From assembly GCA_038063975.1 (NCBI GenBank), contig JBBTTY010000028.1, positions 1 through 33,476 of the forward strand: a DNA stretch of 33,476 nucleotides, given 5' to 3'. Positions 1,016-26,838 of the stretch are shown in pieces (within the stretch, counting starts at the first letter, position 1; every line of letters starts with the position of its first letter). The translations under genes were made by a program, and so were the position numbers. Source of the stretch: Patescibacteria group bacterium (GTDB taxonomy: Bacteria > Patescibacteriota > Minisyncoccia > Phycocordibacterales > UBA6065). The notes beneath the pieces were generated by a model. The model did not search any database. It saw only the letters and a program-made list of their open reading frames with translations, and was not told where the DNA came from.

Positions 1016-1591
1016 ATGAAAAAAATCGTCCTCGATGTAGAGACCAGAAATATTTTTCAAGACGTGAGTTCGAATGATCCGCGAGAGCTCGATATATCAG
1101 TCGTCTGCCTATACGACTATGAAACCGATTCGTATCAGAGCTTCCTCCAAGAAGATTTCGGCAAGCTCTGGCCGATACTAGAGAGAGCAGATATACTCAT
1201 CACATACAATGGCGACCATTTTGACATACCTCTGCTCGGCAAATACTATCCTGGCGATCTGGCAAAAATAAAAAGTCTCGATCTCCTAAAAGAAGTGAAA
1301 AAAACTCTCGGCTTTCGTTTGAAACTCGATTCGATTGCTTCTGCAACTCTGGGTTATAACAAGTCAGGTCACGGATTGGAAGCTGTCACCTGGTGGAAAA
1401 ACGGTGAAATAGAAAAAATCATTAAATATTGTAAAGACGACGTCAAGGTAACAAAAGAAATTTACGATTACGCTCTGAAAAACAATCAGCTCAAATATAA
1501 AGACGGTTCGAATGTAAAAGATATAAAACTAGATACAAAAAATTGGGAAAAGAAAAATGACAGTTCTATGACTTTCAGCTTGGGGTTTTAA
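1016..1591 (+). CDS. RNase H-like/DEDD 3'-5' exonuclease domain protein (YprB-like)
   Basis: LDVET, YNGDHFD and YCKDDV Exo I/II/III motifs. Start moved to ATG 1016 (MKKIVLD). Confidence 0.8.
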   Translation: MKKIVLDVETRNIFQDVSSNDPRELDISVVCLYDYETDSYQSFLQEDFGKLWPILERADILITYNGDHFDIPLLGKYYPGDLAKIKSLDLLKEVKKTLGFRLKLDSIASATLGYNKSGHGLEAVTWWKNGEIEKIIKYCKDDVKVTKEIYDYALKNNQLKYKDGSNVKDIKLDTKNWEKKNDSSMTFSLGF

Positions 1592-1717
1592 TATAAAACG
1601 GAGGAAAATAGTATTGAGCGAGGACTTTCGGAGCACGACGGTGCGAGAATGAGATGGCCAGCCAGTAGGCTGGAACATCGTGCCGAGCGAGATGCTATTT
1701 TCCTCCGTTTTATATTA
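1589..1717 (+). repeat. Structured dispersed element, copy 1
   Basis: 26-bp inverted repeat with one T-G pair, enclosing GACTTTCGGA-GCAC(GACG)GTGC-GAGAATGA-GATG..CCAGCC(AGTA)GGCTGG..CATC-GTG. Confidence 0.85.
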
Positions 1718-2195
1718 CTAGTTTCCGCAAATCCGATATGACTTTTTCTGCGTGCCCCAGAGATTTTACGTGCGAATATATCTGCCTGACCTTGCCCTCT
1801 CTGTCAATCAAAAAAGTCGTCCGCTCTATGCCTTCTATTTTCGCACCGAACATACTTTTTTCTCGCCAGACGTCATAGAGACGAGAGACTCCACCCTGAG
1901 AATCTGAAAGCAAAGTGAAATTGAGGCTCTCGGCCTGGCAGAATTTTTTGTGGGATTTGACATCATCGGCAGAGACACCAAGCACCACTATTCCTAGGTC
2001 ATCTAGTTCATACTGATGATCGCGAAACTCTTGAGCTTCCAGAGTACATCCGGCTGTCATGTCTTTCGGATAAAAATATAGAATGACAAAACTACCTCTG
2101 TAATCCGAAAGAGACCTCATTTTTCCGTCCTCATCACGCAGAGTGAACTCCGGCGCCGGATTTCCGAGCATAGACATTTGAATAAGCGATTTCAT
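1710..2195 (-). CDS. bcp: Peroxiredoxin BCP/PrxQ
   Basis: FYPKDMTAGCTLEA peroxidatic motif, LGVSADD, ERTTFLID. Confidence 0.9.
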   Translation of the reverse strand: MKSLIQMSMLGNPAPEFTLRDEDGKMRSLSDYRGSFVILYFYPKDMTAGCTLEAQEFRDHQYELDDLGIVVLGVSADDVKSHKKFCQAESLNFTLLSDSQGGVSRLYDVWREKSMFGAKIEGIERTTFLIDREGKVRQIYSHVKSLGHAEKVISDLRKLVI

Positions 2196-2256
2196 GATAT
2201 AATTTCTTCTGTCTTAAAAAGTAGAATTACCAGATCATTATACTAGATTAATCTTT

Positions 2257-2964
2257 ATGAATGAACCCAATCAATCTTCTTTGCAGTCTATTTCCATACC
2301 GGTCGCCATCATGGTCGCCGGCGCTCTCATAGCGGGGGGTATTTATTTTAGCGGTAGAGGAAATCAGGCAGCAGTAGTAAATAATGCGAATACTGCGACC
2401 GTATTCAACGCCAATAACATAAAGCCTATAAGCACTGCTGACCACGTTTTGGGCAATCCGAAAGCCGATATCGTCATCATAGAATACTCAGACATCGAAT
2501 GTCCTTTCTGCAAGCAATTTCATGCTACTCTTCACCAACTGATGAACGAATACGGCACCCAGGGTAAATTAGCGTGGGTATATCGTCATTTTCCTGTTCA
2601 CACGAATTCAATAAAGGAAGGCGAAGCAGTAGAATGTGCGGCTGAAATCGGCGGCAATGATGCATTCTGGAAATACACTGACAAGATATTCGAAATCACC
2701 ACTTCAAATAATGGGCTGGACTTGGCAGAGCTTCCCGTCATAGCGGAAGAAATCGGACTTGATGTTGTGCGTTTCAACGCCTGCCTGTCGAGCGAGAAAT
2801 ACAAATCAAAAATCGAGAAAGACAGGGCCGATGTCACGGCAGCTGGCGCCCAAGGCACTCCTTATAGCGTCATATTCACCAAAGGCGACAGGATTCCCCT
2901 CAATCAAGGCGCCCTCCCCTACAATGATATGAAAACTATTATTGATACTATATTGAAGAATTAA
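2257..2964 (+). CDS. Membrane-anchored DsbA/thioredoxin-fold oxidoreductase
   Basis: N-terminal TM helix, EYSDIECPFC (CxxC), YRHFP, GTP cis-Pro loop. Confidence 0.88.
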   Translation: MNEPNQSSLQSISIPVAIMVAGALIAGGIYFSGRGNQAAVVNNANTATVFNANNIKPISTADHVLGNPKADIVIIEYSDIECPFCKQFHATLHQLMNEYGTQGKLAWVYRHFPVHTNSIKEGEAVECAAEIGGNDAFWKYTDKIFEITTSNNGLDLAELPVIAEEIGLDVVRFNACLSSEKYKSKIEKDRADVTAAGAQGTPYSVIFTKGDRIPLNQGALPYNDMKTIIDTILKN

Positions 2965-2996
2965 AAGAGGTGGATTTGTATTTATCTGGCATCATA

Positions 2997-4631
2997 CTAT
3001 TTGACTATATCAGAAAGATGTTTCCAAATAGCATACATTGCGTATGTATCAAGCTCGCAATATTCAAGCATTGATTGTTTTAATTCTTCCTTTTTGGCTT
3101 CTACCATATCTTCTGTAACTAATTTATTCCAGGTATTCATAGCCTCTGAGCCGTTACTAATATCAAGCTCTTTATAAGAGAGTTTTGGACATAAAACATT
3201 GAGTATTTTTTTAATTGAAGCCCTTCCGTGAAAATCTGGATGTACATGTAATTGTTTAGAAAATATTTTCATCAAATCAAAAATTCTAGAATTTACACCT
3301 TGAATAAAGTCTGCATATTCTGGTAATCGTATGGCTAGATGTTTATTGATATGCGATTCTTCAAAGGTTCTATTCCACACAATAATACTTCCGGATTTTC
3401 CTATTTTCTTTTTGAGATCAGTCACAAATAGTGGCGAAGGGTCATTCTTTTCAATATAGAAAAAAGGTTCCATATGTTCAGGTTCGGCACCTTTCTCGGC
3501 AGATTCTTTTGTCAACACATGAAGAGAGTATTGAAATGGGATATGTTGATATGGTTTATATCCGTTAAATCTTGGTATTGCCGGATTAAAAGACTCATAA
3601 TCAAGAAAATACAAAGGAAACTGTAATTTTGCAAATTCTTGACGTATTAATTTATGATTTATATCAGCTTTCTCGTCACCGGGTTTTAACCTCAATGAGC
3701 AGTTGTGCACGTCTGCCTGTTTTTGCATTTTTGGACTAAGTTCAAAGTCATCTGGAATATTCTTGATATCATATACCCCCAAATTTATCAATTCATGCAA
3801 TTTATTACTTCTAATACGAATCAGATCATGAACGCTGTATTTTAGAAGCTCATCGTCTTTTAAAATTTTTCTATTATGTTCGGCAAAGGTCGTGCAATGT
3901 TTTGACCTGCCTTCATAAATACAACGACACGGACCAGACGGCTCTTTAGGAGAACTAAGCAAATTGATCATAATTTCTATTCCCTCTTTAACATGCAACG
4001 ATATTTCTTCTACATAAATAGTTACGTCTTCAAAGACAAAAAGTTTCTGAAGATCAACTTCCCCTGCAAGAGTGTAGTTTTTGTTCAGACGAATGAGATA
4101 AGCCTTAACAACTTTATATCCGACTTTGCGGGCTAGATAAACTTGAAATGCAAGATCATAGAGATGGTGGTCTTTGAGTAATTTATTTTTATACTTTTCA
4201 AGTGCTTTTGGATCCTTGAAATCAACTATCCGATCACCATCATCCGATTCATCTTCAGTTTCTTGTTCCAGTTTAGAACTACTGGATGCTTTAACCTCAT
4301 ATAAGGATAACTCACCATTTTTACCTCGTTTTAATATGTCCACTGCCGCAAATAATATGCCATCAGAAAATGATGCCTGAAAAAGCGTCTCTGTATGATC
4401 TTTTAAAAGCTCTTTAGTTTGTTTGAGGGATTCATCACCACGACTCTCAACAAGTACACCACCAGGAAATCGCTCACGTGCTTTCTTTTCAACTGAATTT
4501 CCCGCTTCAACTAGATGTTTTTCAAAATCAGAAAGAGGTAATGCAAAGTATATCTCCGGTTTCCATTTCTTCATCCAGGCGTTATGCGGACATTCTCGCC
4601 ATAATACATAATCGGATTTTGTGATGATCAT
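2997..4631 (-). CDS. DUF2779-type protein (N-terminal PD-(D/E)xK/RecB-like nuclease plus C-terminal RNase H-like domain)
   Basis: ITKSDY..CP, VDIL..YEVKAS, DLAFQ; C-terminal PLYFLDYES, IPFQYSLH, SIKKIL, YCELDT. Confidence 0.8.
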   Translation of the reverse strand: MIITKSDYVLWRECPHNAWMKKWKPEIYFALPLSDFEKHLVEAGNSVEKKARERFPGGVLVESRGDESLKQTKELLKDHTETLFQASFSDGILFAAVDILKRGKNGELSLYEVKASSSSKLEQETEDESDDGDRIVDFKDPKALEKYKNKLLKDHHLYDLAFQVYLARKVGYKVVKAYLIRLNKNYTLAGEVDLQKLFVFEDVTIYVEEISLHVKEGIEIMINLLSSPKEPSGPCRCIYEGRSKHCTTFAEHNRKILKDDELLKYSVHDLIRIRSNKLHELINLGVYDIKNIPDDFELSPKMQKQADVHNCSLRLKPGDEKADINHKLIRQEFAKLQFPLYFLDYESFNPAIPRFNGYKPYQHIPFQYSLHVLTKESAEKGAEPEHMEPFFYIEKNDPSPLFVTDLKKKIGKSGSIIVWNRTFEESHINKHLAIRLPEYADFIQGVNSRIFDLMKIFSKQLHVHPDFHGRASIKKILNVLCPKLSYKELDISNGSEAMNTWNKLVTEDMVEAKKEELKQSMLEYCELDTYAMYAIWKHLSDIVK

Positions 4632-4636
4632 GTATT

Positions 4637-4891
4637 TTAATATAAATTGCTGTGATTATCGATATTCAAAAAACGAATTCCATTCTCTCTCACCTCATAT
4701 ATCGCTCTCAAATCTCCCGTTATATTGATACTCCTGCATCCAAAGTACTTTCCGTGAAGATTATGATTATTTAATTCCGGAGAAAATGAATCGGCTATAA
4801 ATAGCTTTAATTTCTCATTGAATTTATATTGAAGCTTGGTTGGCAATTTTTTGTACTGCTTCTTAAAGTTTTTATGCAAATCAACAAGCAT
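4637..4891 (-). CDS. Type II toxin, RelE/YafQ-family mRNA interferase
   Basis: 84 aa, HKNFKKQYKKL..LNNHNLHG..RSINITGDLRAIY..IDNHSNLY; directly downstream of the antitoxin. Confidence 0.85.
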   Translation of the reverse strand: MLVDLHKNFKKQYKKLPTKLQYKFNEKLKLFIADSFSPELNNHNLHGKYFGCRSINITGDLRAIYEVRENGIRFLNIDNHSNLY

Positions 4892-4903
4892 GATGGCTTT
4901 ATG

Positions 4904-5176
4904 TTATGATCTCAAACTCTTGATCATATCTTCCGCTGTGTAAAAAGGTCCTATAATATTCTTGTTAGCGCGAGAATCAGTCAACAGCTTATTAAGAATT
5001 TTTTGTGTTCTTTTATTGGGCATCGGATGATCAGTAAACGTTACTCTACGCTCGGAAATAAATTCCTTTATATAACTATTTACAATTGCGTTCAAAGACA
5101 CACCCAGAGTATGGGCTGTTTCCTGGGCCTTTCCTTTGAGAGATTTGTCGATTTTGATACTCAACATAGTTTGCAT
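4904..5176 (-). CDS. Type II antitoxin, RelB/DinJ-like (ribbon-helix-helix)
   Basis: 90 aa, LSIKIDKSLKGKAQETAHTLGVSLNAIVN; C-terminal GPFYTAEDMIKSL. Confidence 0.8.
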   Translation of the reverse strand: MQTMLSIKIDKSLKGKAQETAHTLGVSLNAIVNSYIKEFISERRVTFTDHPMPNKRTQKILNKLLTDSRANKNIIGPFYTAEDMIKSLRS

Positions 5177-5198
5177 GACAATGTAATAAAATAATAAT

Positions 5199-5232
5199 AT
5201 CTAAAGTATATATATTAGATTGATTTAGTCAA
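5199..5232 (-). promoter_or_regulatory. TA promoter with palindromic operator
   Basis: TTGACT..TATACT on the minus strand; inverted repeat ATCTAA-N10-TTAGAT (5199-5220) overlaps the -10. Confidence 0.5.
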
Positions 5233-5262
5233 GACTCTCGTAATTTTAACACGAATACCACA

Positions 5263-6306
5263 TCACAATGACGTAACCTCCTTGTTTTGATCATCCAGAA
5301 TTATCAGTTTGTAAATTTCGATAAGGGCGGAAAACAAGGCGATGACTAATGGTCCGAGGAAGAGTCCGATCGGTCCGAAAAATATAATGCCACCGATAAC
5401 GGAAAGCATGACAAAGAGAGGATGGACAGTAAAACCCCTGCCCACAACTATAGGCATGAGGATATTGTCGACTAGACCGACTACAATTATTCCCCAGATA
5501 CCGAGCCCTATAGCCGCTCCGAGTTTATCTATGAGGAAGAGATATAACACTGCTGGAATAATAGTCAGTCCTGCGCCAATACCAGGTAGGAGAGATACGA
5601 CCGACGTGAGCATACCCCACAAGAGAGCGTGCTCGACACCAAAAACATAGAAACCGAGAGTGGCCAAAATTCCTTTTATGAGAGATGTGAGGAGCGAGCC
5701 GCGCACGACCGAGTTGACCGCCCTCTCAATTTTATCAATTATTTGTTGATCATAAGTATCGGCTAGAGGTGAAATATCCATAATTGTTTTCTTCATACGC
5801 TTGCCATCGCGCAGTATATAAAACAAAGTGATAAGAACGATGAACAATCCCAGAGCGATTGACGCTGTACTGGAAAATATCCTGCCGAAATTATTTACGA
5901 GCGAATCCGCCGCCGATTTCACATAACCGCCGATATCGGGATTCCATGTTGGATATATACTTTGAATGGGCTTTATCACATAAGCCACGAGTAGATTAGC
6001 ATCGCCGAGTCCTCGATCACGCACCGCTGTATAAAAGTTAAAAGATTCGACGGCAATCTGTTCTATGAGAATAGAGAGCGGAACGAGAATGACAATCAGA
6101 ACAAAAAGAACCGTCAGCGTGGCCGTAAGCGTTCTTCGGCCTTTTGTTTTGGCCAGAATCCATCTATCAATCGGACGCACTACAATAGCCGTCATAAAGG
6201 CTAGAGCGACGGGAGCGATAAAAGGTTTGAACAATGCCAGAGTGATGAGAAAAACCGCAATGAGCAATGCCATGAAAAAATAAAGTTGAAGTTTTTTAGT
6301 GTCCAT
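5263..6306 (-). CDS. AI-2E family (PerM/YdiK) transporter
   Basis: 347 aa multi-TM protein, LFYILRDG, DNILMP, HPLFVMLSVIGG..FGPIGLFLGP. Confidence 0.9.
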   Translation of the reverse strand: MDTKKLQLYFFMALLIAVFLITLALFKPFIAPVALAFMTAIVVRPIDRWILAKTKGRRTLTATLTVLFVLIVILVPLSILIEQIAVESFNFYTAVRDRGLGDANLLVAYVIKPIQSIYPTWNPDIGGYVKSAADSLVNNFGRIFSSTASIALGLFIVLITLFYILRDGKRMKKTIMDISPLADTYDQQIIDKIERAVNSVVRGSLLTSLIKGILATLGFYVFGVEHALLWGMLTSVVSLLPGIGAGLTIIPAVLYLFLIDKLGAAIGLGIWGIIVVGLVDNILMPIVVGRGFTVHPLFVMLSVIGGIIFFGPIGLFLGPLVIALFSALIEIYKLIILDDQNKEVTSL

Positions 6307-6331
6307 AGATTTAAGTATACTCTTATTTTAT

Positions 6332-6754
6332 TTATCCAAATATACCTATAATAATTGACATTGCAGCCAAAACAGCCAATTCATGCCCGACTGAAATCAG
6401 AAAAAGGATGAAACTATCGTCGCCGAAACAGTAGTCACCCAATTTCATTGGCACAGCAAAACCAATCCAGAGGAGAAATGCGGAGAGTATGATGCTCCAG
6501 AAACTGACAATGACGAGGGAGTTGAAGAGAACAGCCAAAATAAAAGCAGTGACCAGAGTAGAGATTGTCATACCGATCCAGACTGACGCTTTGGGTTTGT
6601 CTTGTTTTTTATCGTGCGAGTTTTCTTCCGTCTTACTCTTTAACCTCAGCCAAAGTTTGCCAAAGGCCCATGGCGCATACCATACAAAACCGACGATCAT
6701 CCCAGCTATGGTAGCGACAATAATGACCCAATAATTTATATTTTGAAAAAACAT
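6332..6754 (-). CDS. DUF1761-like membrane protein
   Basis: INYWVIIVA..GFVWYAPWAFGKLW signature; four TM helices. Confidence 0.75.
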   Translation of the reverse strand: MFFQNINYWVIIVATIAGMIVGFVWYAPWAFGKLWLRLKSKTEENSHDKKQDKPKASVWIGMTISTLVTAFILAVLFNSLVIVSFWSIILSAFLLWIGFAVPMKLGDYCFGDDSFILFLISVGHELAVLAAMSIIIGIFG

Positions 6755-6948
6755 AATCTATGTGTTATTTAATAAGTGTTTATTTTTAGTACTTTTAATA
6801 CTACTGTATTATACGCTAGACCAACTTTTCATAAAAGGGCTAAAAATATAGGCGAATTTTGAGAGATAAAGAAAAGATAAAGTTTAAAATGAGTAATTCT
6901 TGCAAATTTTGACACGGTGTGGGAGGGTGGGGACATTAAAAAACCCAT

Positions 6949-7632
6949 ATGCGTATTCTCGTTGTAGATGATGACAAAGACATACGCGGTTATTTAAAGG
7001 CCAATCTAGAAGCCGAATGTTTTGCGGTCGATACAGCCGGGGACGGCGAAGAGGGTTCATACCTCGGAAAAAACAAAAGTTACGACGCTATAGTTCTCGA
7101 TAACAATATGCCGCGAAAGAGCGGCATTCGTGTTTGTGCCGATTTGCGAAGCGCCGGAAACACAACGCCTATCATCATGCTCTCTGTAGATTCTGACAGT
7201 GAGCATAAAGCCGAATTGCTCGATACTGGCGCAGATGATTATTTGACCAAACCTTTCTTATACAAAGAACTGCGTTCGAGAATTCGTGCCCTCCTGCGCA
7301 GGCCACGTAAAACAGTACCGTCTATACTACAAGTAGACGATCTCGTCTTAGACAGTTCGCGGCAATTCGTCAAACGTGGCAAAAAGAAAATATATCTCAC
7401 CCGCAAAGAATTTTCCCTACTCGAACATCTCATGAGAAATGAAGGAATGATCGTTTCTCGCGCCAGTATCCTAGAGCACGTCTGGGATGCTGAGATCAGT
7501 GTTTTTTCAAATACAATCGAGGCTCATATATTAAATATCCGAAAAAAGGTAGATGAACGGCCAAAGAAAAAGCTCATATACACCATGCCGGGCCGAGGAT
7601 ATCAGATCAATTGCCGTAACCCCAATTATTAA
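6949..7632 (+). CDS. OmpR/PhoB-family response regulator
   Basis: ILVVDDD, phosphoacceptor LDNNMP, GADDYLTKPF, winged-helix LTRKEF..GRGY. Confidence 0.93.
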   Translation: MRILVVDDDKDIRGYLKANLEAECFAVDTAGDGEEGSYLGKNKSYDAIVLDNNMPRKSGIRVCADLRSAGNTTPIIMLSVDSDSEHKAELLDTGADDYLTKPFLYKELRSRIRALLRRPRKTVPSILQVDDLVLDSSRQFVKRGKKKIYLTRKEFSLLEHLMRNEGMIVSRASILEHVWDAEISVFSNTIEAHILNIRKKVDERPKKKLIYTMPGRGYQINCRNPNY

Positions 7633-7640
7633 CTTACAAT

Positions 7641-8414
7641 ATGATCTATTTAGAAAAATTAGGACGGCGCACTCGAGAATTCAGGTCGTCGCTTCGTCGC
7701 CTTTTTGGCGTAAAAGATACTCCGCCCTACATTTCACGCTTTGCAGAATTTGGCAGAGGAGCGAGTGGTGTTATCCATGATCTCTCAAATCCACTCACTG
7801 TCATAAGTCTATCGATGGAACAGCTCAAAAACGACGTCCGCATCCGAGGGAGAGATGCTCAAAAACATATAGAAACTGCTCTACGGGCAAGCAGAAAAAT
7901 GAAATTGTTTTTGTCGACGGCAAAACAGCAATTAGCAGAAAAAGAAATACGAACACGATTTGATGTCATAGAGGAAATTCAGAGCGTCATAAAGCTCCTA
8001 CGTCCGATATCAAAAAAATCAGATATAAAAATTAAATACCGCTCCCACAAAGCGGTATTTATTTTCGGCGATGAAATCAAATTCTTTAGAATCGTTTCAA
8101 ATATTGTTTCAAACGCCATAGATTCATACGTTTTATTTCCCGGTCAGCAAAACAAATTAATAATTATACGAGTGAAAAATGACAAAAAAAATCTCATCAT
8201 ATCCATACGCGATTTCGGTTGTGGTATTCCAAAACACCTCCATAAAGCAATATTTGAGCCTTTTTATACAACCAAACAGAAACACGAAGGGACGGCGGGA
8301 CTCGGACTTTCAATAGTAAAAAACATCGTAGAAAACGATTTTAAATGCAAAATAAAAATAGACAGTACGACAGGCAGGGGTTCGACGTTTAAAATTATTA
8401 TGCTTCTACTTTGA
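7641..8414 (+). CDS. Histidine kinase without sensor domain (HisKA + HATPase_c)
   Basis: H-box HDLSNPL, N-box NIVSNAID, DFGCGI, FEPFYTTK, GLGL. No TM segment. Confidence 0.88.
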   Translation: MIYLEKLGRRTREFRSSLRRLFGVKDTPPYISRFAEFGRGASGVIHDLSNPLTVISLSMEQLKNDVRIRGRDAQKHIETALRASRKMKLFLSTAKQQLAEKEIRTRFDVIEEIQSVIKLLRPISKKSDIKIKYRSHKAVFIFGDEIKFFRIVSNIVSNAIDSYVLFPGQQNKLIIIRVKNDKKNLIISIRDFGCGIPKHLHKAIFEPFYTTKQKHEGTAGLGLSIVKNIVENDFKCKIKIDSTTGRGSTFKIIMLLL

Positions 8415-8669
8415 TTTATATACGAAATTCCAGATGGTTCCGACTATATTGCCTACGATATAGCCCACAAAAGACGTAATCACTATGAGAACAATCGCTT
8501 TACCAAAACTGAAATCCGTTATAACAAAAGAAAAATCAATAAAATGGATCCGATATATAAAGGAAAGAATCGAACCAGCCCAGCCGACACCGACAAAAAA
8601 CACCCAAATGACATGCATGAAACCAGCAAATCCACCCAAAACCAAACCGAGTTTATGTCTGTTGACCAT
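8406..8669 (-). CDS. Small hypothetical membrane protein
   Basis: 87 aa, two to three hydrophobic helices. Confidence 0.7.
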   Translation of the reverse strand: MVNRHKLGLVLGGFAGFMHVIWVFFVGVGWAGSILSFIYRIHFIDFSFVITDFSFGKAIVLIVITSFVGYIVGNIVGTIWNFVYKSK

Positions 8670-8730
8670 ATAAATAATAAAACTAATTTATAATCTTATC
8701 CCATTATTATATCACTATCATCTATTTTTG

Positions 8731-8801
8731 TTGCCGGACTTGGAATCGAACCAAAATTTAGAGCTTCAAAGGCTCCCGTCCTACCATTAGACGATCCGGC
8801 A
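8731..8801 (-). tRNA. tRNA-Gln(TTG)
   Basis: Cloverleaf TGCCGGA/TCCGGCA, anticodon loop CT-TTG-AA, TTCGATT T-loop. CCA not encoded. Confidence 0.93.
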
Positions 8802-9938: not shown

Positions 9939-9971
9939 AAAAAAGACGGGCGAGATTTGCAATCTCGCCCG
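9939..9971 (-). terminator. Intrinsic terminator
   Basis: 11-bp stem CGGGCGAGATT/AATCTCGCCCG followed on the minus strand by TCTTTTTT. Confidence 0.75.
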
Positions 9972-10159
9972 CTTATATTCATGTCAGGCGTAACCAACAT
10001 GAAAATAGTTACAACTACTGTCATGAGAAAATAGGGATCATGAGCTCCCATTCAAAACTGCAAAAGAACAAAATCGGAGAGAGGGGGTGGGGCCAACTAC
10101 ACTTCGTCAGAAAAACCACCCCCTCCCAATTGGATGCGCTTTGCCGACGCATCGTAGTT
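9972..10159 (-). ncRNA. Candidate structured sRNA or leader between dus and dnaX
   Basis: GATGCG/CGCATC hairpin and GAGGGGGTGG/CCACCCCCTC stem; upstream TTGCAA-N16-TAAATT and downstream terminator. Confidence 0.35.
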
Positions 10160-11197: not shown

Positions 11198-11214
11198 AAT
11201 ACGTAAAAAATGGG

Positions 11215-11331
11215 GGGGGTATAAAACATGCATTGATGGAGACTTTCGGAGAAGGCGAAGGCCTTCGAGAATGAGACGGCTCGCCAGTAGGCGAGAACGT
11301 CGTGCTCCAGCAATGCATGTTTTATACCCCC
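11215..11331 (+). repeat. Structured dispersed element, copy 2
   Basis: 21-bp perfect inverted repeat plus TGGAG/CTCCA, enclosing ACTTTCGGA-GAAGGC(GAAG)GCCTTC-GAGAATGA-GACG..CTCGCC(AGTA)GGCGAG..CGTC-GTG. Confidence 0.85.
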
Positions 11332-11340
11332 TACTTTATA

Positions 11341-20066: not shown

Positions 20067-20286
20067 TTTCTTCTATTAAAACAATTTTATGTGGCGAATG
20101 ATGTCCGCTGACTATTCTTATAACTCTCTTTGAATCACCAAAATGCGCGCGCAGTAATTCGAGAGCCCTAGCGTTTGCCAATCCCCTCTCGGCTGGCACC
20201 CTAACCATAACCAGATATTCATCTTTCTTTTCTTCCTTTACCGACTCTTTTTTTGCGCCGGCCGTGACATACACTTTTATGTACAT
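20047..20286 (-). CDS. DUF167/YggU family protein
   Basis: IKVYVTAGAKKE..PAERGLAN..IVSGHHSPHK. Confidence 0.85.
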   Translation of the reverse strand: MYIKVYVTAGAKKESVKEEKKDEYLVMVRVPAERGLANARALELLRAHFGDSKRVIRIVSGHHSPHKIVLIEENGTTSK

Positions 20287-20289
20287 AAA

Positions 20290-20952
20290 TTACTTAATTA
20301 TTCGAAAATACTGTCTAGCGATTTCAAGAAGTTCTCGACCAATCGCAGCATCATGATATCTAACAGTAGCACAACCCTGATATCCCACTCTTTTGTTAAT
20401 TCCGCCCTCTTTTTTTATATAACTTTTAATAAAATTAACCTGTGGTATATCGGTTATATTGGACCAAAAAGTCTTTTGGGTCTTTTCGTCATGATAACTA
20501 TGCAAATGAACACATACCCTAAACCTCGATTCGTCTAGATTGAAACCATCTCTCAGTAAAGATAAAAATATTCGCATAAGTTCAGAACTAGAATTTGTAA
20601 ACGTCATTCCATGTTTTATAGATTTCTCTCCCTCACAATAGTAAATAAGAGCGCACATTAGCTTTTTTTGCTGTTTGGTTGCCGTTGGTATTGCTCTCAG
20701 AGTTTCCTTAGCTTTTTCGCTCGCCTCTACTTCACGAATTATTCTTTTTTTAGACAAAGTTAAACCAGCTCTTTTATTACCTTCAATTTTAAGTCTCTCT
20801 ATTCTATTTTTTGCGTGCAGACTTAGAATAATTCCCCTCAACCAAATGGAAAGTGTACTCTTAGAGATTTTAACTGAATGTGAAATCTCATTTATAGATT
20901 GTCCCGTTTTTCGTAAACTGATCGCCTTGTTTTTAACTTCATTACTGAACAT
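20290..20952 (-). CDS. HTH plus single LAGLIDADG-like domain protein
   Basis: N-terminal HTH (LRKTGQSINEISHSVKISKSTLSIWL); ALIYYCEGEK followed by FTNSS and FWSNIT, resembling a LAGLIDADG helix. Confidence 0.6.
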   Translation of the reverse strand: MFSNEVKNKAISLRKTGQSINEISHSVKISKSTLSIWLRGIILSLHAKNRIERLKIEGNKRAGLTLSKKRIIREVEASEKAKETLRAIPTATKQQKKLMCALIYYCEGEKSIKHGMTFTNSSSELMRIFLSLLRDGFNLDESRFRVCVHLHSYHDEKTQKTFWSNITDIPQVNFIKSYIKKEGGINKRVGYQGCATVRYHDAAIGRELLEIARQYFRIIK

Positions 20953-21028
20953 ATAAGTATAGTTACATTAGTATACATTATACTATCTATTTTCAATGAA
21001 GTATGTAGTATGTTATGCTTTTTTTGTT

Positions 21029-21100
21029 GGGCCTGTAGTTTCAATGGTAAAACATCTCACTCCAAACGAGAGGTTCCCCGTTCGAGTCGGGGCGGGCCCG
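21029..21100 (+). tRNA. tRNA-Trp(CCA)
   Basis: GGGCCTG/CGGGCCC acceptor, CT-CCA-AA loop, TTCGAGT T-loop. Confidence 0.9.
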
Positions 21101-21103
21101 CAT

Positions 21104-21619
21104 ATGACAGACACAGAACAAAAAGTTCTCAAAGCCCTAAAATTAATCATTCCCGCTCTAGAAAAGTATGATTTCAAATGGGTGATCACAGGTGGTTTCG
21201 CTTCGCATGTTTACGGTGTAAATCGTCCAATAACAGATATCGATATAGACATCGATACAAGCAAAGATTCACCGGACTTTAAAAATCTAATCAGAGACCT
21301 CAAAAAATATACTACCCAACCTCTGGAGCACTTTGTCGACCAAAATTATGATAACTACAACTTCGAAATTACTTTGGACGGTATTGTGATAGACATATGT
21401 CCCATGAAAGAAATGTGTATATATGACAAGAAAACTTCAAAGTACACACCCTTCTACCAAATAGGATTTCCTGATTCAAAAGTTATTGGATGGAAAAGTC
21501 TAAACCTTCCCCTATTGTCAAAAGAACTTATTATAAAAAACAAAGAAATGCTGTTTTGGCAAAGAGAGTCAGACTTAAAAGATATCGAGAATTTGAAAAA
21601 ATTGAGCCAGAGAACATAA
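21104..21619 (+). CDS. Pol-beta-superfamily nucleotidyltransferase
   Basis: WVITGGFA..RPITDIDID (GG plus DxD), later IDI. Start at ATG 21104, after the tRNA. Confidence 0.7.
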   Translation: MTDTEQKVLKALKLIIPALEKYDFKWVITGGFASHVYGVNRPITDIDIDIDTSKDSPDFKNLIRDLKKYTTQPLEHFVDQNYDNYNFEITLDGIVIDICPMKEMCIYDKKTSKYTPFYQIGFPDSKVIGWKSLNLPLLSKELIIKNKEMLFWQRESDLKDIENLKKLSQRT

Positions 21620-21710
21620 TCGAGAAGTGGCTTTCGGAAGCCGACGGGCCGAGAACGAGACGCCCGGCCAGCAGGCCGGGACGGCGTACACTTCTCGATT
21701 ATGTTCTCTG
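21608..21710 (+). repeat. Structured dispersed element, copy 3
   Basis: 22-bp perfect inverted repeat enclosing GCTTTCGGA-AGCC(GACG)GGCC-GAGAACGA-GACG-CCCGGCC(AGCA)GGCCGGG-A-CGGC-GTA. Confidence 0.85.
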
Positions 21711-21717
21711 CCGAACT

Positions 21718-21873
21718 TTATTTCTTGCTCTCCTTGAACACCACGCGTTTGCGGAGCTTTTTGGAGTATTTTTTCAGCTCAATTTTGCGTTCTACTTTGC
21801 GCTTATTTTTGCGGGTAAAATAGACTTCGCCGGTCTGTTTATTTTTTAGAATGATGAGTTGGTCTTGGGACAT
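21718..21873 (-). CDS. rpmG: 50S ribosomal protein L33 (Cys-free form)
   Basis: MSQDQLIILKNKQTGEVYFTRKNKRKVERKIELKKYSKKLRKRVVFKESKK; below the ORF-track length cutoff. Confidence 0.92.
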   Translation of the reverse strand: MSQDQLIILKNKQTGEVYFTRKNKRKVERKIELKKYSKKLRKRVVFKESKK

Positions 21874-21900
21874 ATGTTCCGAAAGGTTATCATAAAGCCT

Positions 21901-23046
21901 TTAAAGAGGCAATATTCGCGGTATTTTGGGGTTTATACGGGCCACGATTTCATAATTGATCGTATCGGCCGCCTCGGCCATTTCTTCGGCAGAAATAATT
22001 TCCTTGCCTTGCTTGCCAATGATCACCACTTCATCTCCCTGTTTTACAGAAGGAATATCCGTGACATTGATAATGGTCATATCCATAGAAATTCTGCCGA
22101 CAATGTCCGCTCTCTTGCCGCACACTAGAACTTGACCATTATTAGAAAGGGAGCGTGGCAGACCATGCCAATAACCGACAGGAATAATGGCTAATCTAGA
22201 GTTTTTTGTGAGTTCATGTGTGAGGTCATAACCTATTTTTGATCCTTTTCCTGCAAGTTTTATTTCCGTGATAATTGTTTTCCATGTGAGAGCTGGAAAA
22301 ATTTCCACGCCTTTTGACCAGAGTTTTATTTCTCGCGAAGGCCACAGACCGTAGAGGGCGATGCCGGCCCTAGACATATCAAAATGGAAATTTTTTGAAA
22401 ATAAAATACCTGAACTCGCCGAAGCATGAGTGATAGGCGTAAAACCTCTCTGATTTAGTTTTTCGACGATATTTCTGAAATTATTTGCCTGCATTTTCGA
22501 ATAATCTTCGCGCATCGGATCTTCCATGACGGCAAAATGTGTATAGGCTCCTTCAATTTTTGCTGGAAAATTTTTGGCAGAAATAATTCGAATTATTTGC
22601 TGGACATGAGTTTCTGTTATTCCCTGCCTATGGAGACCTGTATCAAACTTCAAGTGTATGGAAAGTTTTTTGGGAAGTTTTGTTTTTGAGAGGATTGAAA
22701 GAGAATCGAGAGACGAAATTGTCAGGGAAATTTTCTTTTGAGAGGCAATTTTAAAGTATTTTGGCAAAGTATAACCAAAAACCAAAATCGGTACTTTAAA
22801 GCCAGCTCTGCGAAGCTCCAGAGCCTCTGTAATCTCATCTACAGCCAACCAATCTGCGCCACCTGAGAGAACAGCTTTTGCCGACAAAATCATGCCGTGT
22901 CCATAAGCATTTGATTTGACCACAGCCATCATGACTACTTTATTTGAAAGCAGAGATTTGAGTGTTCGAGTGTTTTTTTCTATAGCTTTCGGATCAATTT
23001 CAAGCCATGTCCGGAAAGATTCGGCAATATTTATAAACTGCTTCAT
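21901..23046 (-). CDS. alr: Alanine racemase
   Basis: AVVKSNAYGHG PLP-lysine motif, HLKFDTGLHRQG, GRISMD, TINYEIV. Confidence 0.96.
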   Translation of the reverse strand: MKQFINIAESFRTWLEIDPKAIEKNTRTLKSLLSNKVVMMAVVKSNAYGHGMILSAKAVLSGGADWLAVDEITEALELRRAGFKVPILVFGYTLPKYFKIASQKKISLTISSLDSLSILSKTKLPKKLSIHLKFDTGLHRQGITETHVQQIIRIISAKNFPAKIEGAYTHFAVMEDPMREDYSKMQANNFRNIVEKLNQRGFTPITHASASSGILFSKNFHFDMSRAGIALYGLWPSREIKLWSKGVEIFPALTWKTIITEIKLAGKGSKIGYDLTHELTKNSRLAIIPVGYWHGLPRSLSNNGQVLVCGKRADIVGRISMDMTIINVTDIPSVKQGDEVVIIGKQGKEIISAEEMAEAADTINYEIVARINPKIPRILPL

Positions 23047-23056
23047 AATGTTGATG

Positions 23057-23139
23057 TGCGCCGAGAGGGACTCGAACCCCCGGAGGCCAAAGGCCGCGAC
23101 GTTTACAGCGTCGTGTAATTGCCACTATACGATCGGCGC
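23057..23139 (-). tRNA. tRNA-Tyr(GTA)
   Basis: GCGCCGA/TCGGCGC acceptor, CT-GTA-AA loop, long variable arm. Confidence 0.92.
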
Positions 23140-23232
23140 ATGAGGAACTTCCCTACTTTATCAGATTTTTGCTCTATCACAAGCTTGCGTGATGCAGAGT
23201 CTCATATCTAAAGCTTCGGACGAACCGATTAT

Positions 23233-25962
23233 CTAGCTAGCCACTTTTTCGGATTTTTCTGCTTTCACTAATTCTATTTCATCACCAAACATTTTCACAA
23301 GCACTGGCTTTCTGCCCTTTTTTATATCGAAGGTGAATTCGCTGTTTTTTTGGCCTACAGAAATAGCGCCACCTTTGTTTACTTCTTGGGAAATCATAAA
23401 TCCGGCTATAGGTGTGAGAATTTTTTCTTGTATGAGACGACGGAGAGGTCTGGCACCATATTGAGGATTATAGCCTTCTTTTGCGAGATATTCCAAAACC
23501 GTAGGCTGGATTTCTAATCTGATTTCCTTTTCAGCCAAGCGTTTTATGACCTGTTCAATCTGGATTTTTACAATTTCTTTTATAGCTTCAATAGAAAGTA
23601 CGTCAAAGAGAAGAATCGAATCCAAACGATTGAGAAACTCCGGCCTAAAATAATCTTTTAGACTCTGCATTACTTTGTCTTTGACGTCTTCGTATTTCGC
23701 TTTATCTCCAGCGCCGGAAGCAAAACCGATTTTTTCCATTTTATCTATAAACTGGGCGCCGATGTTTGAGGTGAGAATAATGATAGTATTTTTGAAGTTC
23801 ACCACACGGTTCTTTGTATCAGTCAGACGACCGTTATCTAGAACCTGAAGCAAAATATTGAAAACTTCCGGGTGAGCTTTTTCAATTTCGTCAAAGAGAA
23901 TGACGGAATACGGACGGTGACGAACCATTTCGGTGAGAGACCCGCCTTCTTCATATCCGACATAGCCCGGTGGAGCACCGATCAGTTTCGACGTTGAATG
24001 TTTTTCCATAAACTCTGACATGTCCACGCGAATGAGGGCTCTCTCGTCATTGAACATGAATTCGGCTAGAGCTTTTGTAAGCTCGGTTTTGCCGACACCA
24101 GTCGGCCCGAGAAAGAGAAAAGAACCGATAGGTCTCTGGGGATCGGCGATGCCGGCCCGAGCGCGTCTCACGGTATCGGCGATTTTTTTGACAGCTTCTG
24201 TCTGTCCCACGACGCGTTTGGCTAATCCAGCTTCCATTCTCATCAGTTTGTTGGCTTCTTCTTCGAGCATGCGTGAGACTGGAATACCTGTCCATTTGGA
24301 AACTATATCAGCTATGTCTTGTTCATTGATTTCCTCTTTGAGGATTCGGCGAGATGATTGCAGTTTTTTGAATTTTTTCTGCTTCATATCTAAATCTTTT
24401 TCAAGTACAGGAATTTTTCCATATCTGATTTCAGCGGCTTTTGAAAGTTCGGCCTTTAGTTCTGCGGCTTCTTCTTCTAAACGCATTTTCTCCAGCTCTT
24501 TTTTGAGAGATTTAATATTCGTCAGTAGCTCTTTTTCACTTTTCCATTTTAGTTCGAGCTCTCTCGTTTCTTCTTGGAGATCAGCAATTGCCTTTTCTAT
24601 GGCTTTGATACGTGCCTTTGGAGCTTTTGCTTCATCTTTATTTTCTTTGGCTAATTCGATTTCTCTACGCAGAGCTTCGCGTTCAATTTCCAGGCGCATG
24701 ATTTTCCTGTGAGCGTCTTCTAGTAGAGGTGGCTTTGATTCGAGAGAAATTTTGAGAGCCGATGCCGCTTCATCTACCAAGTCAACGGTTTTGTCTGGCA
24801 AAAATCTCTCCGAAATATAGCGAGAAGAGAGGTTGACAGCCGCAATGATAGCGTCATCCGTAATACGCACGCCATGATAGAGCTCATACTTTTCTTTGAG
24901 ACCGCGCAAGATAGCGATGGCATCTTCTATAGAAGGCTCCGCTACATACACGGGCTGAAAACGACGCGTCAAGGCCGGGTCTTTTTCTATGTATTTTTGA
25001 TATTCCTTGAGCGTGGTAGCACCGATAGCGCGCAGATCGCCACGAGCCAGAGCAGGTTTCAACATATTTGAAGCGTCCATAGATCCTTCAGCCGCACCCG
25101 CACCGACAATAGTGTGGATTTCATCTATAAAGAGAATAATCTTGCCTTCGGAACGTTCGATTTCTTTCATGATGTTTTTTAGACGCTCTTCGAATTCGCC
25201 ACGATATTTCGTGCCAGCAACCAAGAGGCCAAGATCTAGCAAAACGAGTTCTTTGTCTTTGAGTGATTCCGGAACATCACCAGTCATCATGCGCAGAGCC
25301 AATCCTTCGACGATAGCAGTTTTTCCCACACCAGCTTCACCTATGAGAATAGGATTATTTTTCGTTCGGCGGGAGAGAATTTGGATGATGCGTTTGATTT
25401 CCTGATCACGACCGATGACAGGATCAAGTTTGTTTTCAAAAGCCAGTTTAGTGAGACTTTTTGTGTATTTGGCCAAAGTGCGAGGCCGTTTCGGAGCGAT
25501 ATGCTCTATGTTCTTGGTTGCACGCAATTCTTCGAGAACACGCAGAACTGACGCTTTGGTTATACGAAAGCGAGAGAGAATATCCAGAGCCGGACTAGAC
25601 ACTTCGAGGAGAGCGACGAGTAGGTGTTCGGTGGAAATAAATTCGTCTTTTAAACTTGTCGCTACTTTGCCGGAATTTTCCAGAGCTTGTGCCAATTCCG
25701 GCGTGAGATATATCTGATAAGACTGGGACAGGGTGGTTCCCGCCTGCGCGCCTTCGAGCGATTCGGCCAGAGAATCAGATAGGAGAATTATGTCTACTTC
25801 TAATTTTTCCAAAATAGCTGTAACCATACTCTCTTCTTGAAGTATGAGAGAGGAGAGGAGATGGAGTGGATTTACGTGATTTTGAGCGCGCTCAATGGCC
25901 AGCTCGTGCGCTCGTCTGATGGCTTCTTTGGCTTTGGTTGTAAAATGATTAAGGGGTGGCAT
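23233..25962 (-). CDS. clpB: AAA+ chaperone ClpB
   Basis: Two nucleotide-binding domains (GEAGVGKT, GPTGVGKT), KYRGEFEERL, GYVGYEEGG, long coiled-coil middle domain. Confidence 0.92.
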   Translation of the reverse strand: MPPLNHFTTKAKEAIRRAHELAIERAQNHVNPLHLLSSLILQEESMVTAILEKLEVDIILLSDSLAESLEGAQAGTTLSQSYQIYLTPELAQALENSGKVATSLKDEFISTEHLLVALLEVSSPALDILSRFRITKASVLRVLEELRATKNIEHIAPKRPRTLAKYTKSLTKLAFENKLDPVIGRDQEIKRIIQILSRRTKNNPILIGEAGVGKTAIVEGLALRMMTGDVPESLKDKELVLLDLGLLVAGTKYRGEFEERLKNIMKEIERSEGKIILFIDEIHTIVGAGAAEGSMDASNMLKPALARGDLRAIGATTLKEYQKYIEKDPALTRRFQPVYVAEPSIEDAIAILRGLKEKYELYHGVRITDDAIIAAVNLSSRYISERFLPDKTVDLVDEAASALKISLESKPPLLEDAHRKIMRLEIEREALRREIELAKENKDEAKAPKARIKAIEKAIADLQEETRELELKWKSEKELLTNIKSLKKELEKMRLEEEAAELKAELSKAAEIRYGKIPVLEKDLDMKQKKFKKLQSSRRILKEEINEQDIADIVSKWTGIPVSRMLEEEANKLMRMEAGLAKRVVGQTEAVKKIADTVRRARAGIADPQRPIGSFLFLGPTGVGKTELTKALAEFMFNDERALIRVDMSEFMEKHSTSKLIGAPPGYVGYEEGGSLTEMVRHRPYSVILFDEIEKAHPEVFNILLQVLDNGRLTDTKNRVVNFKNTIIILTSNIGAQFIDKMEKIGFASGAGDKAKYEDVKDKVMQSLKDYFRPEFLNRLDSILLFDVLSIEAIKEIVKIQIEQVIKRLAEKEIRLEIQPTVLEYLAKEGYNPQYGARPLRRLIQEKILTPIAGFMISQEVNKGGAISVGQKNSEFTFDIKKGRKPVLVKMFGDEIELVKAEKSEKVAS

Positions 25963-26686
25963 ATGTTTTTATAATATTCGATGGTATAAAGCTGTTTTGA
26001 TTACTTCCGTCATTTACAGCAATGACCTCACCTAAAAGATTAACAAGAATTGCGTGACTGTCAAAGCTTTCTCTCGTGGTATTTACTTTGATTCTCTCTT
26101 TATTTTTTGAAGAAATAATGCCTGTGGCAATAGAGAGTTCTTCCCTGCCTGCAATTAATACAACTGATTGGCCGAGTTTGAGTGTACCAGAATCGGCCAG
26201 TGTTGCTCCCGTATAAACTCTAGCATTTTTTTTATCGAATGCCTGCTCGGCTTGAAAGAGAGAAATACCTGTCAGAGGATCGCGTGATACAAAGGACAGG
26301 GTGACAGTGTTGCCGCCTAGGAGATCAGCCGAGAGATTATTCACATAAACAGTATCGGTCTCGGCTACAATTTTTCCGGAATTAGAGAGAATGATGCCGA
26401 GACCGAGGAAATTGCCACCACTTTTTATTCGAACGATTGATTTTTCAGCTCTGCTTATGGCATTTGTTATGGCTTCATCTTCCTTCACAACAATTATCTC
26501 TTTTGTGGTCGTTGCGCCTGGAGAGACGGTTTGAATAGTTTTCTCCACCACTCGATTTATAGTTTGGGTGACGGCTGGAGAGCTCTGGTCTAGGAGAGAT
26601 ACAGTGACAATACCTGTGGCGATAGACGAAACAAAGGAGACCAGAAGGGCTAGGAGAATAATCTGCTGTTTGGTCAGGTGTTCCAT
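25949..26686 (-). CDS. Membrane-anchored HtrA/trypsin-like domain protein, catalytic motifs degenerate
   Basis: N-terminal TM helix, GLGIILS..G, LKLGQSV, GIIS, LVNLLGEVIAV. TNAHV and GNSGG motifs absent. Confidence 0.7.
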   Translation of the reverse strand: MEHLTKQQIILLALLVSFVSSIATGIVTVSLLDQSSPAVTQTINRVVEKTIQTVSPGATTTKEIIVVKEDEAITNAISRAEKSIVRIKSGGNFLGLGIILSNSGKIVAETDTVYVNNLSADLLGGNTVTLSFVSRDPLTGISLFQAEQAFDKKNARVYTGATLADSGTLKLGQSVVLIAGREELSIATGIISSKNKERIKVNTTRESFDSHAILVNLLGEVIAVNDGSNQNSFIPSNIIKTYATP

Positions 26687-26727
26687 GACTCTATTTTATC
26701 GCATTTTGGAGATTTTGAAAGATGGAA

Positions 26728-26838
26728 GAAACGAAAGGGATGTTCTCGTGGAGCACGGAAGTTTTCTTGCTAGAAAACTTCCTCGGCTTCGTCGCCGTCG
26801 CTCCTCAGGCGTCTCCACTCGAACATCCCTTTCGTTTC
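26728..26838 (-). repeat. Structured dispersed element, copy 4 (divergent, inverted)
   Basis: 18-bp perfect inverted repeat. Minus-strand core GTGGAG-AC..GGA-GC(GACG)GC-GA..CGA-GGAAGTTTTCT(AGCA)AGAAAACTTCC-GTG-CTCCAC. Confidence 0.75.

Follow-up and report, generated by a model that had tools for sequence, protein, structure and literature searches.

A 33,476-nt stretch of the genome of a Patescibacteria group bacterium (GCA_038063975.1, contig JBBTTY010000028.1, forward strand; hereafter the window) carries four copies of a long hairpin with a branched, covarying tip, which belong to a repeat family that is apparently undescribed and that, in these ultra-small groundwater bacteria, appears to behave more like selfish mobile DNA than like regulatory RNA. 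The family is multi-copy and patchy, its helices covary with wobble pairs tolerated on one strand, and its members are gained, lost, replaced and inverted at orthologous intergenic sites. The reading that we favour, at a probability of roughly 0.55, is that the elements form a non-autonomous palindromic (foldback) mobile repeat family of genomes of the candidate phyla radiation (CPR)/Patescibacteria type, because of their copy number, lineage-specific expansions, presence/absence polymorphism, indifferent choice of spacer, competing tip families and lack of a tie to any gene.

The window's genome (G000; 611 kb in 50 contigs, 40.6% G+C, 97.5% complete) was compared with other genomes of the same genus (the other G-numbers), the genes of those compared being 64-85% identical to G000 in DNA. 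Positions within a genome are given as contig and coordinate (Cn:position), and L-numbers denote loci cut from G000, from relatives or from named records of metagenome-assembled genomes (MAGs).

A covarying three-way junction folded from one strand

All four window copies, three on the plus strand and one on the minus strand, are perfect or near-perfect long hairpins with a branched tip. Folded as RNA they have minimum free energies (MFE) between -61.9 and -72.1 kcal/mol, and none of 200 shuffles is as stable (Table 1). A covariance model (R1), built on an alignment of 18 subfamily-A copies over 96 columns (A2), was run on the window with filters off and returned exactly four strong matches. 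As the core scores far higher on one strand than on the other, where the opposite strand is listed, the conserved core defines a strand, hereafter the model strand. The elements lie where a first-pass annotation of the window had placed them, with the ends of copy 2 as given in Table 1.

The elements are 100-145 nt long, with a GC-rich core of ~70 nt (55-61% G+C, versus 40.6% for the genome) atop a stem of 15-45 bp. This core is a three-way junction of helices P1, P2/P2a and P3 with fixed loops and junction bases. P1 contains one or two symmetric tandem G.A steps of the CGAG/CGAG type and a bulged G. A single unpaired U precedes the 3-bp stem of P2 (UUC/GAA), which is followed by a GGA/GA internal loop and the P2a hairpin, of 4-6 bp, with the loop GACG, GAAG, GUAG or GUGA. 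The bases UGA join the P2 and P3 arms; P3 has two stems, of 4 bp and 6-7 bp, separated by a G/AA internal loop; the second ends in an AGCA or AGUA loop, and GU then leads back into P1. The outer stem is partly family-specific and partly locus-specific, often with an A-run at its start and a T-run at its end. Its inner part has the sequence GCGAAAGGAAGTCTG in many subfamily-A copies, though only in a subset of them, while the hairpin ends vary by copy, share no terminal tetranucleotide and are flanked by unrelated sequence. The shared layout proposed in the first-pass annotation is borne out for copies 1-3 by their folds and by the 18-copy alignment, copy 4 having diverged, with GA/GA as its first internal loop, and the stem pairs quoted there are present (GCAC/GTGC, GAAGGC/GCCTTC, CCAGCC/GGCTGG, CTCGCC/GGCGAG and GGAAGTTTTCT/AGAAAACTTCC).

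The secondary structure of A2 was drawn from folds together with visible compensatory changes. In this alignment standard pairs fill 92.8% of cells, and two-sided changes are seen at 23 of 34 pairs. Sliding the partners by 1-3 columns lowers these figures to 27-41% of cells and 3-8 pairs, and none of 500 shuffles scores as high as the alignment itself. A second alignment of 54 further copies from named MAG records (A3) gave 31 of 34 pairs changing on both sides, with 93.3% of cells pairing versus 31-46% for slid partners. Since A3 was aligned by fitting to R1 and the copies are related, these figures are counts and not probabilities; the covariation signal is large despite both. It extends to the individual arms. 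Pair 20-46 of P2 covaries from U-A to C-G in A2, five of the six P2a pairs are changed on both sides, and the corresponding count for P3 (helix 4) is 6/10 in A2 and 10/10 in A3.

The tolerated mismatches are strongly asymmetric. Cells with G.U or U.G stand to cells with A.C or C.A as 22:8 in A2 and 114:16 in A3, and G.U to A.C as 51:3 in the seven outermost stem pairs, where no sequence is conserved. One pair closing P1 at the junction is G.U in 34 and A-U in 20 of the 54 A3 copies, and the model strand is more stable than its complement in 24 of 27 G000 copies, by 7.3 kcal/mol on average. Such asymmetry is expected neither from symmetric mutation, as in palindrome-perfecting template switching, nor from selection on duplex DNA; it is the single-stranded fold of one strand, stem included, that is under selection.

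The compensatory stem changes that the first-pass annotation read from four copies are thus found in a real family. It had further taken the differences between stems to argue against recent copying. Structural constraint stands, but many copies share GCGAAAGGAAGTCTG and subfamily-B copies of different genomes have a full-length identity of 82-92%; shared stems and covariation together mean that copying and structural constraint both operate.

Family size and distribution

A motif scan with an nhmmer profile found 18 copies in G000 and missed subfamily B, so that the covariance model was needed. Searching the same genome with R1 gave 27 copies, of which 18 belong to subfamily A (78-103 bits, including window copies 1-3) and 9 to subfamily B (48-61 bits, including window copy 4), and BLAST clustering of long hairpins added six subfamily-B copies, bringing the total to 33 where the first-pass annotation had counted four. 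Subfamily B follows the same plan, except that its P3 is A/U-rich and 11 bp long and that the internal loop is GA/GA. The clustering also yielded at least four further tip families on like hairpins, namely C (4 copies), D (6), E (4) and B2 (2), and the inverted-repeat catalogue of G000 holds 115 entries with an uninterrupted outer stem of at least 12 bp. These further families use the same plan of A-run, stem, tip, stem and T-run (examples in G000 are C24:3001-3120, C5:5217-5335, C41:20083-20189 and C22:9723-9847), and a CGAG...CGAG step at the base of the tip is common to families A, B and D. At one locus of a relative (L055, G007:C35:2600-2860) the subfamily-B P2a is replaced by a structured insertion of ~75 nt, making the core 134 instead of 59 nt, which suggests nesting of elements within elements.

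The element family is patchy among relatives. R1 matches 15 of the 21 other genomes of the genus, with 0-19 matches per genome and none in the remaining six. Beyond the genus, three other genera of the family gave no match; of 16 other families of the order three are positive, and one of these has 14 matches. Under stricter filters, 2 of 150 genomes sampled evenly across the phylum were positive, each with one weak match. The covariance-model search suggested in the first-pass annotation has returned further copies both in G000 and in most genomes of the genus.

An exact pattern of the A core was also run against 185,579 species genomes and found 61 loci, in 38 of which R1 confirms 54 copies. 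The submitters' titles for these 38 loci are Parcubacteria, Paceibacterota, Patescibacteria group, Candidatus Saccharibacteria or "bacterium". We regard the other 23 loci as chance matches: they have no R1 match and are in records titled Planctomycetes, Lachnospiraceae, Dehalococcoidia and others, plus one Patescibacteria-group record (L090). The IMG/VR, phage and plasmid collections gave no match to the element.

Turnover at orthologous sites

Nine occupied G000 sites were aligned at base level with their counterparts in G007, G010 and G020, and G003, G009 and G018 were searched too. The element is absent in at least one relative at five of the nine sites, sometimes with almost no spacer left. 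Another tip family is present at four sites, at two of them within the same stems; the same stems hold an inverted core at two sites, and one site holds a degenerate remnant. Three additional sites lack the element in G000 but hold it in a relative.

Clean absence is seen at two of the window copies. At the site of copy 1, a 118-nt hairpin including the outer stem is precisely absent in G020, where the convergent genes abut, and the site of copy 2 is empty in G010 and holds a plain 13-bp-stem hairpin in G020. In a metagenome contig of another study (run X4), 9 other letters are all that separates 11200 from 11351; this allele lacks copy 2, as in G010, and probably stems from a related organism. 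Elsewhere, the copies at C29:18819 and C35:18056 are absent in G010, and that at C17:1067 is absent in G007 and G020.

Replacement takes several forms. At the site of copy 3, G007 has a subfamily-B element and both G010 and G020 have a C-type hairpin; the site of C29:21240 holds a C-type hairpin in G007 and G020 and a D-type in G010, in a similar AAAAAAG...CTTTTTT frame. At C35:18056 the same stems carry an A tip in G000 and a B2-like tip in G007, and at C22:18359 an A tip in G000 and a B tip in G007, G020 retaining the 5' arm alone. Inversion is seen at C35:19611, where the 59-nt core of G000 agrees with that of G010 and G007 at 51/59 positions when reverse-complemented and at 28/59 in the same orientation, the arms being collinear. 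The G007 core at C29:18819 is likewise inverted and carries in addition the nested insertion of ~75 nt in P2a. At C22:11590 the A copy is kept in place and orientation in G020, as judged from coordinates only.

Gene context and orientation

Context was called crudely, from the longest open reading frames (ORFs) of at least 80 aa with nested ones dropped. All 33 A/B copies in G000 fall between ORFs. For the 27 that could be classified, 16 lie in co-directional, 7 in convergent and 4 in divergent spacers, which does not differ from the background of all G000 spacers (426/93/91, respectively; chi-square p 0.29). Thus 23 of the 27 follow at least one gene end and four lie between divergent gene starts. 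Three of the divergent contexts are Pfam-verified (nusA and a 421-aa ORF; tsaE and a PilB-like ATPase; GAPDH (gap) and a MerR-type regulator), and the elements are therefore not confined to gene ends.

Orientation relative to genes is biased. Of the 16 co-directional copies in G000, 12 have the model strand antisense to the genes and the other 4 have it sense. Among the 54 named-MAG copies, 14 are co-directional (12 antisense and 2 sense), 12 lie between convergent and 2 between divergent genes, and 26 are unclassified. Combined, antisense stands to sense as 24:6 (binomial p 0.0014, an upper bound on the significance since some sites may be orthologous), and reading the unclassified cases by eye with looser distance limits brings the ratio nearer to 2:1. 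One MAG record set titled Candidatus Saccharibacteria (L071, L092, L096, L103, L111 and L117) has (-,+) doublets ~50 nt apart, often between convergent genes, so that each copy is antisense to its nearer gene; one reverse (+,-) doublet occurs in L118.

These contexts also bear on whether the elements belong to the host, as elaborate and largely bidirectional intrinsic terminators or 3'-end stabilisers whose GC-rich tip nucleates folding or binds a host protein, with the tip families as interchangeable modules. Many copies begin 0-30 nt from a stop codon, and an A-run and a T-run bracket many, not all, of them as in bidirectional terminators. In the four aligned genomes the same inter-gene sites always hold some long hairpin, of differing families, and at some sites the stems are kept across species. 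The window has few simple terminators, and of these only the one at 9946-9972 is convincing. We nevertheless consider a terminator or insulator function an unlikely explanation of the family. Copies sit between divergent gene starts, context frequencies equal those of the background, and relatives lack the element at five of nine sites, with six of 21 genus genomes lacking any match. Moreover, the strand on which wobbles are tolerated is in most cases not the one co-transcribed with the upstream gene, and the mRNA would thus carry A.C mismatches; stability alone does not explain the fixed loop and junction bases.

The hairpin at 9946-9972 has a 12-bp G+C-rich stem, a 3-nt loop and T-runs, and is the sole textbook-looking bidirectional intrinsic terminator in the window, showing the plain form that terminators take in this genome. 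Terminator scans, to which loops longer than 8 nt are invisible, gave 23 matches versus 15.1 +/- 4.2 expected and 17 versus 15.2 +/- 4.2, counts close to those of shuffled sequence.

Proposed mode of spread and the search for a mobilising enzyme

If the family is mobile, the element would spread through a single-stranded intermediate of the model strand, for which single-stranded DNA is favoured over RNA because in most cases the mRNA does not correspond to the model strand. A trans-acting factor would recognise the fold of the three-way junction. Once the element has inserted, its long inverted arms could allow recombination or template switching to flip the core or to exchange it between copies, and the hairpin would be tolerated in intergenic DNA, where it may incidentally serve as a terminator-like hairpin.

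A bolder version, which we hold to be improbable, is that the elements are a new kind of single-strand mobile cassette that uses the junction as its recognition fold and does without the known small-element transposases. Such cassettes would be copied, exchanged and flipped at the hairpin tips, by a rolling-hairpin-like (flip/flop) resolution or by a novel structure-specific CPR nuclease or recombinase, with the antisense bias reflecting the strand exposed at the replication fork.

A number of observations weigh against mobility. First, no autonomous partner was seen among the families searched (Y1, TnpB, IS110 and tyrosine recombinase). The absence of a transposase reported for the window by the first-pass annotation extends to the whole of G000 for Y1 TnpA (RAYT/IS200 type), the TnpB Zn-ribbon and the IS110 transposase, and the last two have no match in the high-copy relatives either. 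An HUH/RAYT partner, which that annotation had proposed looking for, is likewise missing from the high-copy relatives: Y1_Tnp (PF01797) has no match in G002, G007, G009, G010, G016, G018, G020 or G021, each with 5-19 copies, and is present in several genomes without the element. A Phage_integrase-family gene (Xer-like tyrosine recombinase) occurs once per genome in 39 of 41 genomes, whether the element is present or absent. Another of the annotation's candidates, a reverse transcriptase (RT), does exist in G000, with four matches to RVT_1; the association with the element is weak (Fisher p 0.12), RVT_1 being found in 11 of the 19 genomes with the element and in 7 of the 22 without it.

Second, the filled and empty pairs at copy 1, copy 2 and C17:1067 display no clear direct target-site duplication, although with relatives 70-80% identical the insertion junctions are blurred. 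Third, some same-site copies keep their stems across species whose flanking genes are 70-81% identical. At C35:19611 the cores of G010 and G007 are identical at 59/59 positions with differing arms, the flanking genes being ~70-80% identical to G000, and this core identity implies either strong constraint or recent conversion. Same-site conservation of this kind is equally compatible with purifying selection for a host function and with conversion or re-insertion. Lastly, the evidence for core inversion comes from MAG assemblies in which inverted repeats were put together from short reads, the ORF calls behind the gene contexts are crude, and the terminator-like bracketing by A- and T-runs belongs on the same side.

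Two further observations concern the insertion sites and the RT genes. When C17:1055-1168 is compared with G007 and G020, TTCTTGA at the insertion's 3' end mirrors TGAAGAA, the 5' flank that predates it, and copy 1 shows the like pair TAAT/ATTA; insertion may create or require a short inverted relation of the flanks, or this may be chance. Three of the four RVT_1 genes in G000 lie at contig ends. One locus, L127:1200-4700 (G000 C13:5300-8800), is a complete diversity-generating retroelement (DGR). Its RVT_1 protein has 343 aa and its template repeat, at L127:3503-3635, 133 nt; the two variable repeats, which are 86% and 89% identical, lie at the 3' end of one ORF each, neither ORF having a Pfam match. 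Three copies of the element lie ~2 kb from an RT gene (G000 C13, G020 C45 and G007 C11). A link to DGR accessory hairpins was considered and rejected: the C13 copy follows rpoD, 5' of the target gene, and adjoins neither variable repeat.

Structured RNA or a host DNA site as possible alternatives

The strand-specific fold could in principle be that of a functional RNA transcribed from the model strand, such as a multi-copy small RNA, a protein-binding decoy or a self-cleaving ribozyme, with the antisense bias arising since sense copies damage mRNAs. The conserved G.U pair at P1 and the junction, the invariant junction and loop bases, and the architecture that A and B share despite sequence divergence all agree with this, as do several tandem G.A motifs, which are typical of RNA-protein sites (read by eye from the alignment). 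We think it quite improbable all the same. No conserved promoter lies upstream, the flanks being unrelated between copies, and in several antisense copies the upstream spacing, at -6 to 62 nt, is often too short for one. Promoter-like matches occur at shuffle level (48 versus 39.2 +/- 7.0 and 39 versus 35.7 +/- 5.9), no ribozyme or other RNA family matched at E up to 1-10, and a conserved RNA gene would hardly show such high turnover, or inversion, at orthologous sites. One promoter-like match, at 21593-21620, overlaps the 5' arm of copy 3 and was not used as evidence.

In Rfam 15, whose families include the hammerhead, twister, pistol, hatchet and HDV-like ribozymes as well as bacterial repeat RNAs, the window at gathering score contains seven tRNAs only. 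The segment 1500-1800 has no match at E up to 10; 15 other A copies gave only sub-threshold plant microRNA precursor models (30.6 bits versus a gathering score of 70; 22 versus 211), and 26600-26950 gave two chance-level matches to long non-coding RNAs (E >7) and nothing else. Comparing junction strands (1, 3 and 0 nt) by eye with known ribozyme cores, hammerhead and others, revealed no resemblance. The first-pass annotation's view that the motif is undescribed thus agrees with the lack of any Rfam 15 family match, and full-text literature searches, supplementary files excluded, returned no description of such elements in Patescibacteria or Parcubacteria. It had offered two alternatives, of which the REP/MITE-like single-strand element fits better, and a cis-acting or regulatory RNA is disfavoured by the 24:6 antisense ratio, the turnover and the divergent spacers.

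A host site acting at the DNA level, as a folded single strand or cruciform for recombination, replication or DNA uptake with its orientation set by replication direction, in analogy to integron attC bottom strands or Xer-dependent folded sites, is quite improbable too: selection on a one-strand fold, the bias in orientation with respect to gene direction (a proxy for replication direction), the single Xer-like recombinase in each genome, and the fact that G.T wobbles and tandem G.A pairs are stable in DNA too would suit it, but there are no cassette arrays and no integron-type integrase beyond the Xer-like gene, which is equally present without the element, the patchy distribution within one genus argues against an essential site, and in a 50-contig assembly nothing ties the copies to replication landmarks.

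The copies in the window

Table 1. Positions, model scores and predicted folding of the elements in the window (R1 bits are for the model strand unless stated; z-scores are relative to 200 shuffles)
Feature	Position	Strand	R1 match	R1, opposite strand (bits)	MFE (kcal/mol)	z-score	Description
Copy 1, subfamily A	1589-1717	+	87.8 bits at 1609-1698		-67.4	-11.6	Whole hairpin
Copy 1, outer stem	1589-1615 with 1691-1717	+					27 bp; caps the three-way-junction core
Copy 1, arm P2/P2a	1627-1649	+					3-bp UUC/GAA, GGA/GA internal loop, hairpin GCAC-GACG-GUGC
Copy 1, arm P3	1653-1679	+					GAUG/CAUC stem, G/AA internal loop, hairpin CCAGCC-AGUA-GGCUGG
Copy 2, subfamily A	11214-11332	+	98.7 bits at 11227-11320	25.6	-72.1	-13.3	
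Copy 3, subfamily A	21608-21710	+	81.9 bits at 21615-21704	17.8	-61.9	-9.2	
Copy 4, subfamily B	26728-26838	-	48.0 bits at 26738-26827	10.7	-65.1	-10.0	

Copy 1 lies between convergent genes, with the end of an RNase H-like exonuclease gene at 1591 and a peroxiredoxin gene on the other side, the stop codon of which (1710-1712) sits inside the 3' arm. Its GGA/GA loop is readable as one bulged G plus tandem G.A pairs. Copy 2 is found between the stop of a gene for an FtsQ-type POTRA protein and the start of Dus; as both genes are on the minus strand, the folding strand is antisense to both. Copy 3 is again in a convergent context, with a 161-aa plus-strand ORF on one side and, on the other, a small minus-strand gene that we read, by eye from its translation, as ribosomal protein L33. 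The 161-aa ORF (21134-21619), which lies between tRNA-Trp and copy 3 and has no Pfam match, is missing at that place in G007, G010 and G020, a matching segment being present on another G020 contig.

Copy 4, which is in sense orientation between two minus-strand genes, has an A/U-rich 11-bp P3 with an AGCA loop and a short GC-GACG-GC hairpin. Its P1, GUGGAG/CUCCAC, is flanked by CGAG/CGAG, and it has many full-length matches of 82-92% identity in G007, G010 and G020. A fifth long hairpin of the window, at 30341-30439, lies between two plus-strand ORFs (99 nt, perfect 23-bp outer stem, -55.9 kcal/mol). It scores just 11-13 bits with R1 on both strands, and its G/C-rich tip is of another family, resembling an insert at an unrelated site in G020 (C39).

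Significance and relation to known systems

The ultra-small genomes of CPR bacteria are generally regarded as having shed their mobile DNA; yet ~1% of this 611-kb genome consists of several families of long hairpins with structured tips, and these turn over faster than the surrounding genes. That a covarying, strand-specific junction is the most conserved part points to a recognition machinery outside the usual enzymes, and this machinery, if found, would be a new structure-guided activity handling DNA or RNA. The elements mark sites of frequent insertion, replacement and inversion, and are useful for strain typing and for work on the ends and insulation of transcription units. They also carry a warning for RNA-motif discovery, in that strong covariation can stem from a selfish repeat and not from a host regulatory RNA.

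Several known systems resemble the family in part. Repetitive extragenic palindromes (REP/BIME/REPIN-RAYT) are similarly multi-copy intergenic palindromes, often near gene ends, with compensatory stem changes; they are non-autonomous and probably act, strand-specifically, as folded single strands. They are, however, simple stem-loops of 20-40 nt with a conserved terminal tetranucleotide (GTAG/CGTC type) and a Y1 transposase partner, whereas the present elements measure 100-145 nt, have a branched three-way-junction tip and hairpin ends that differ by copy, and lack such a partner in G000 and in the top-copy relatives G007, G009, G010, G018 and G020.

Correia elements of Neisseria (CREE/NEMIS), ERIC and RUP/BOX/SPRITE share with them the size (~100-150 bp), the foldback and intergenic character and variable presence at orthologous sites, and both can supply hairpins that resemble terminators. 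Correia-type repeats conserve the terminal inverted repeat and vary in the interior; here conservation is highest in the tip and the outer stem is variable, neither a TA nor another clear target duplication was seen, and the core covaries with a one-strand wobble asymmetry. With respect to miniature inverted-repeat transposable elements (MITEs), what is common here is the inner stem GCGAAAGGAAGTCTG in a subset of A copies, the outermost stem being locus-specific. Rickettsia palindromic elements (RPE) are also palindromic repeats of ~100-150 nt in very small genomes with no identified transposase. They differ from the present family in that all 33 A/B copies here lie between ORFs, as far as the ORF calls allow, and RPE are not known to have a conserved three-way-junction tip.

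The inverted terminal repeat of adeno-associated virus, a parvovirus, recalls the elements in having a long palindromic stem with two small hairpins, a T- or Y-shaped junction and two mutually inverted tip orientations. Those repeats are the ends of linear single-stranded DNA virus genomes, nicked at a defined site by the HUH enzyme Rep, whereas the present ones are internal chromosomal repeats; the viral collections gave no match to the element, Rep-type enzymes being searched for as Y1_Tnp only. Integron attC sites likewise conserve structure over stem sequence, with a folding strand antisense to the upstream gene and, in some, branched terminal structures. In contrast to attC, which conserves the base of the stem, the present family conserves the tip sequence, and its copies are dispersed among housekeeping genes with no cassette arrays or integron integrase.

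TIGR arrays, which encode the guide RNAs of Tas proteins and occur also in Parcubacteria, are reported to consist of tandem hairpin units with two variable spacers and box C/D motifs next to tas (PMC12045711). The elements described here do not match this arrangement, being dispersed singly at about one per 20 kb, with interiors that are conserved and not variable. What sets the family apart from REP, Correia and RPE is that a covarying branched tip is conserved, that the fold of one strand, mostly the antisense one, is protected, and that the tip is exchanged and flipped within its stems.

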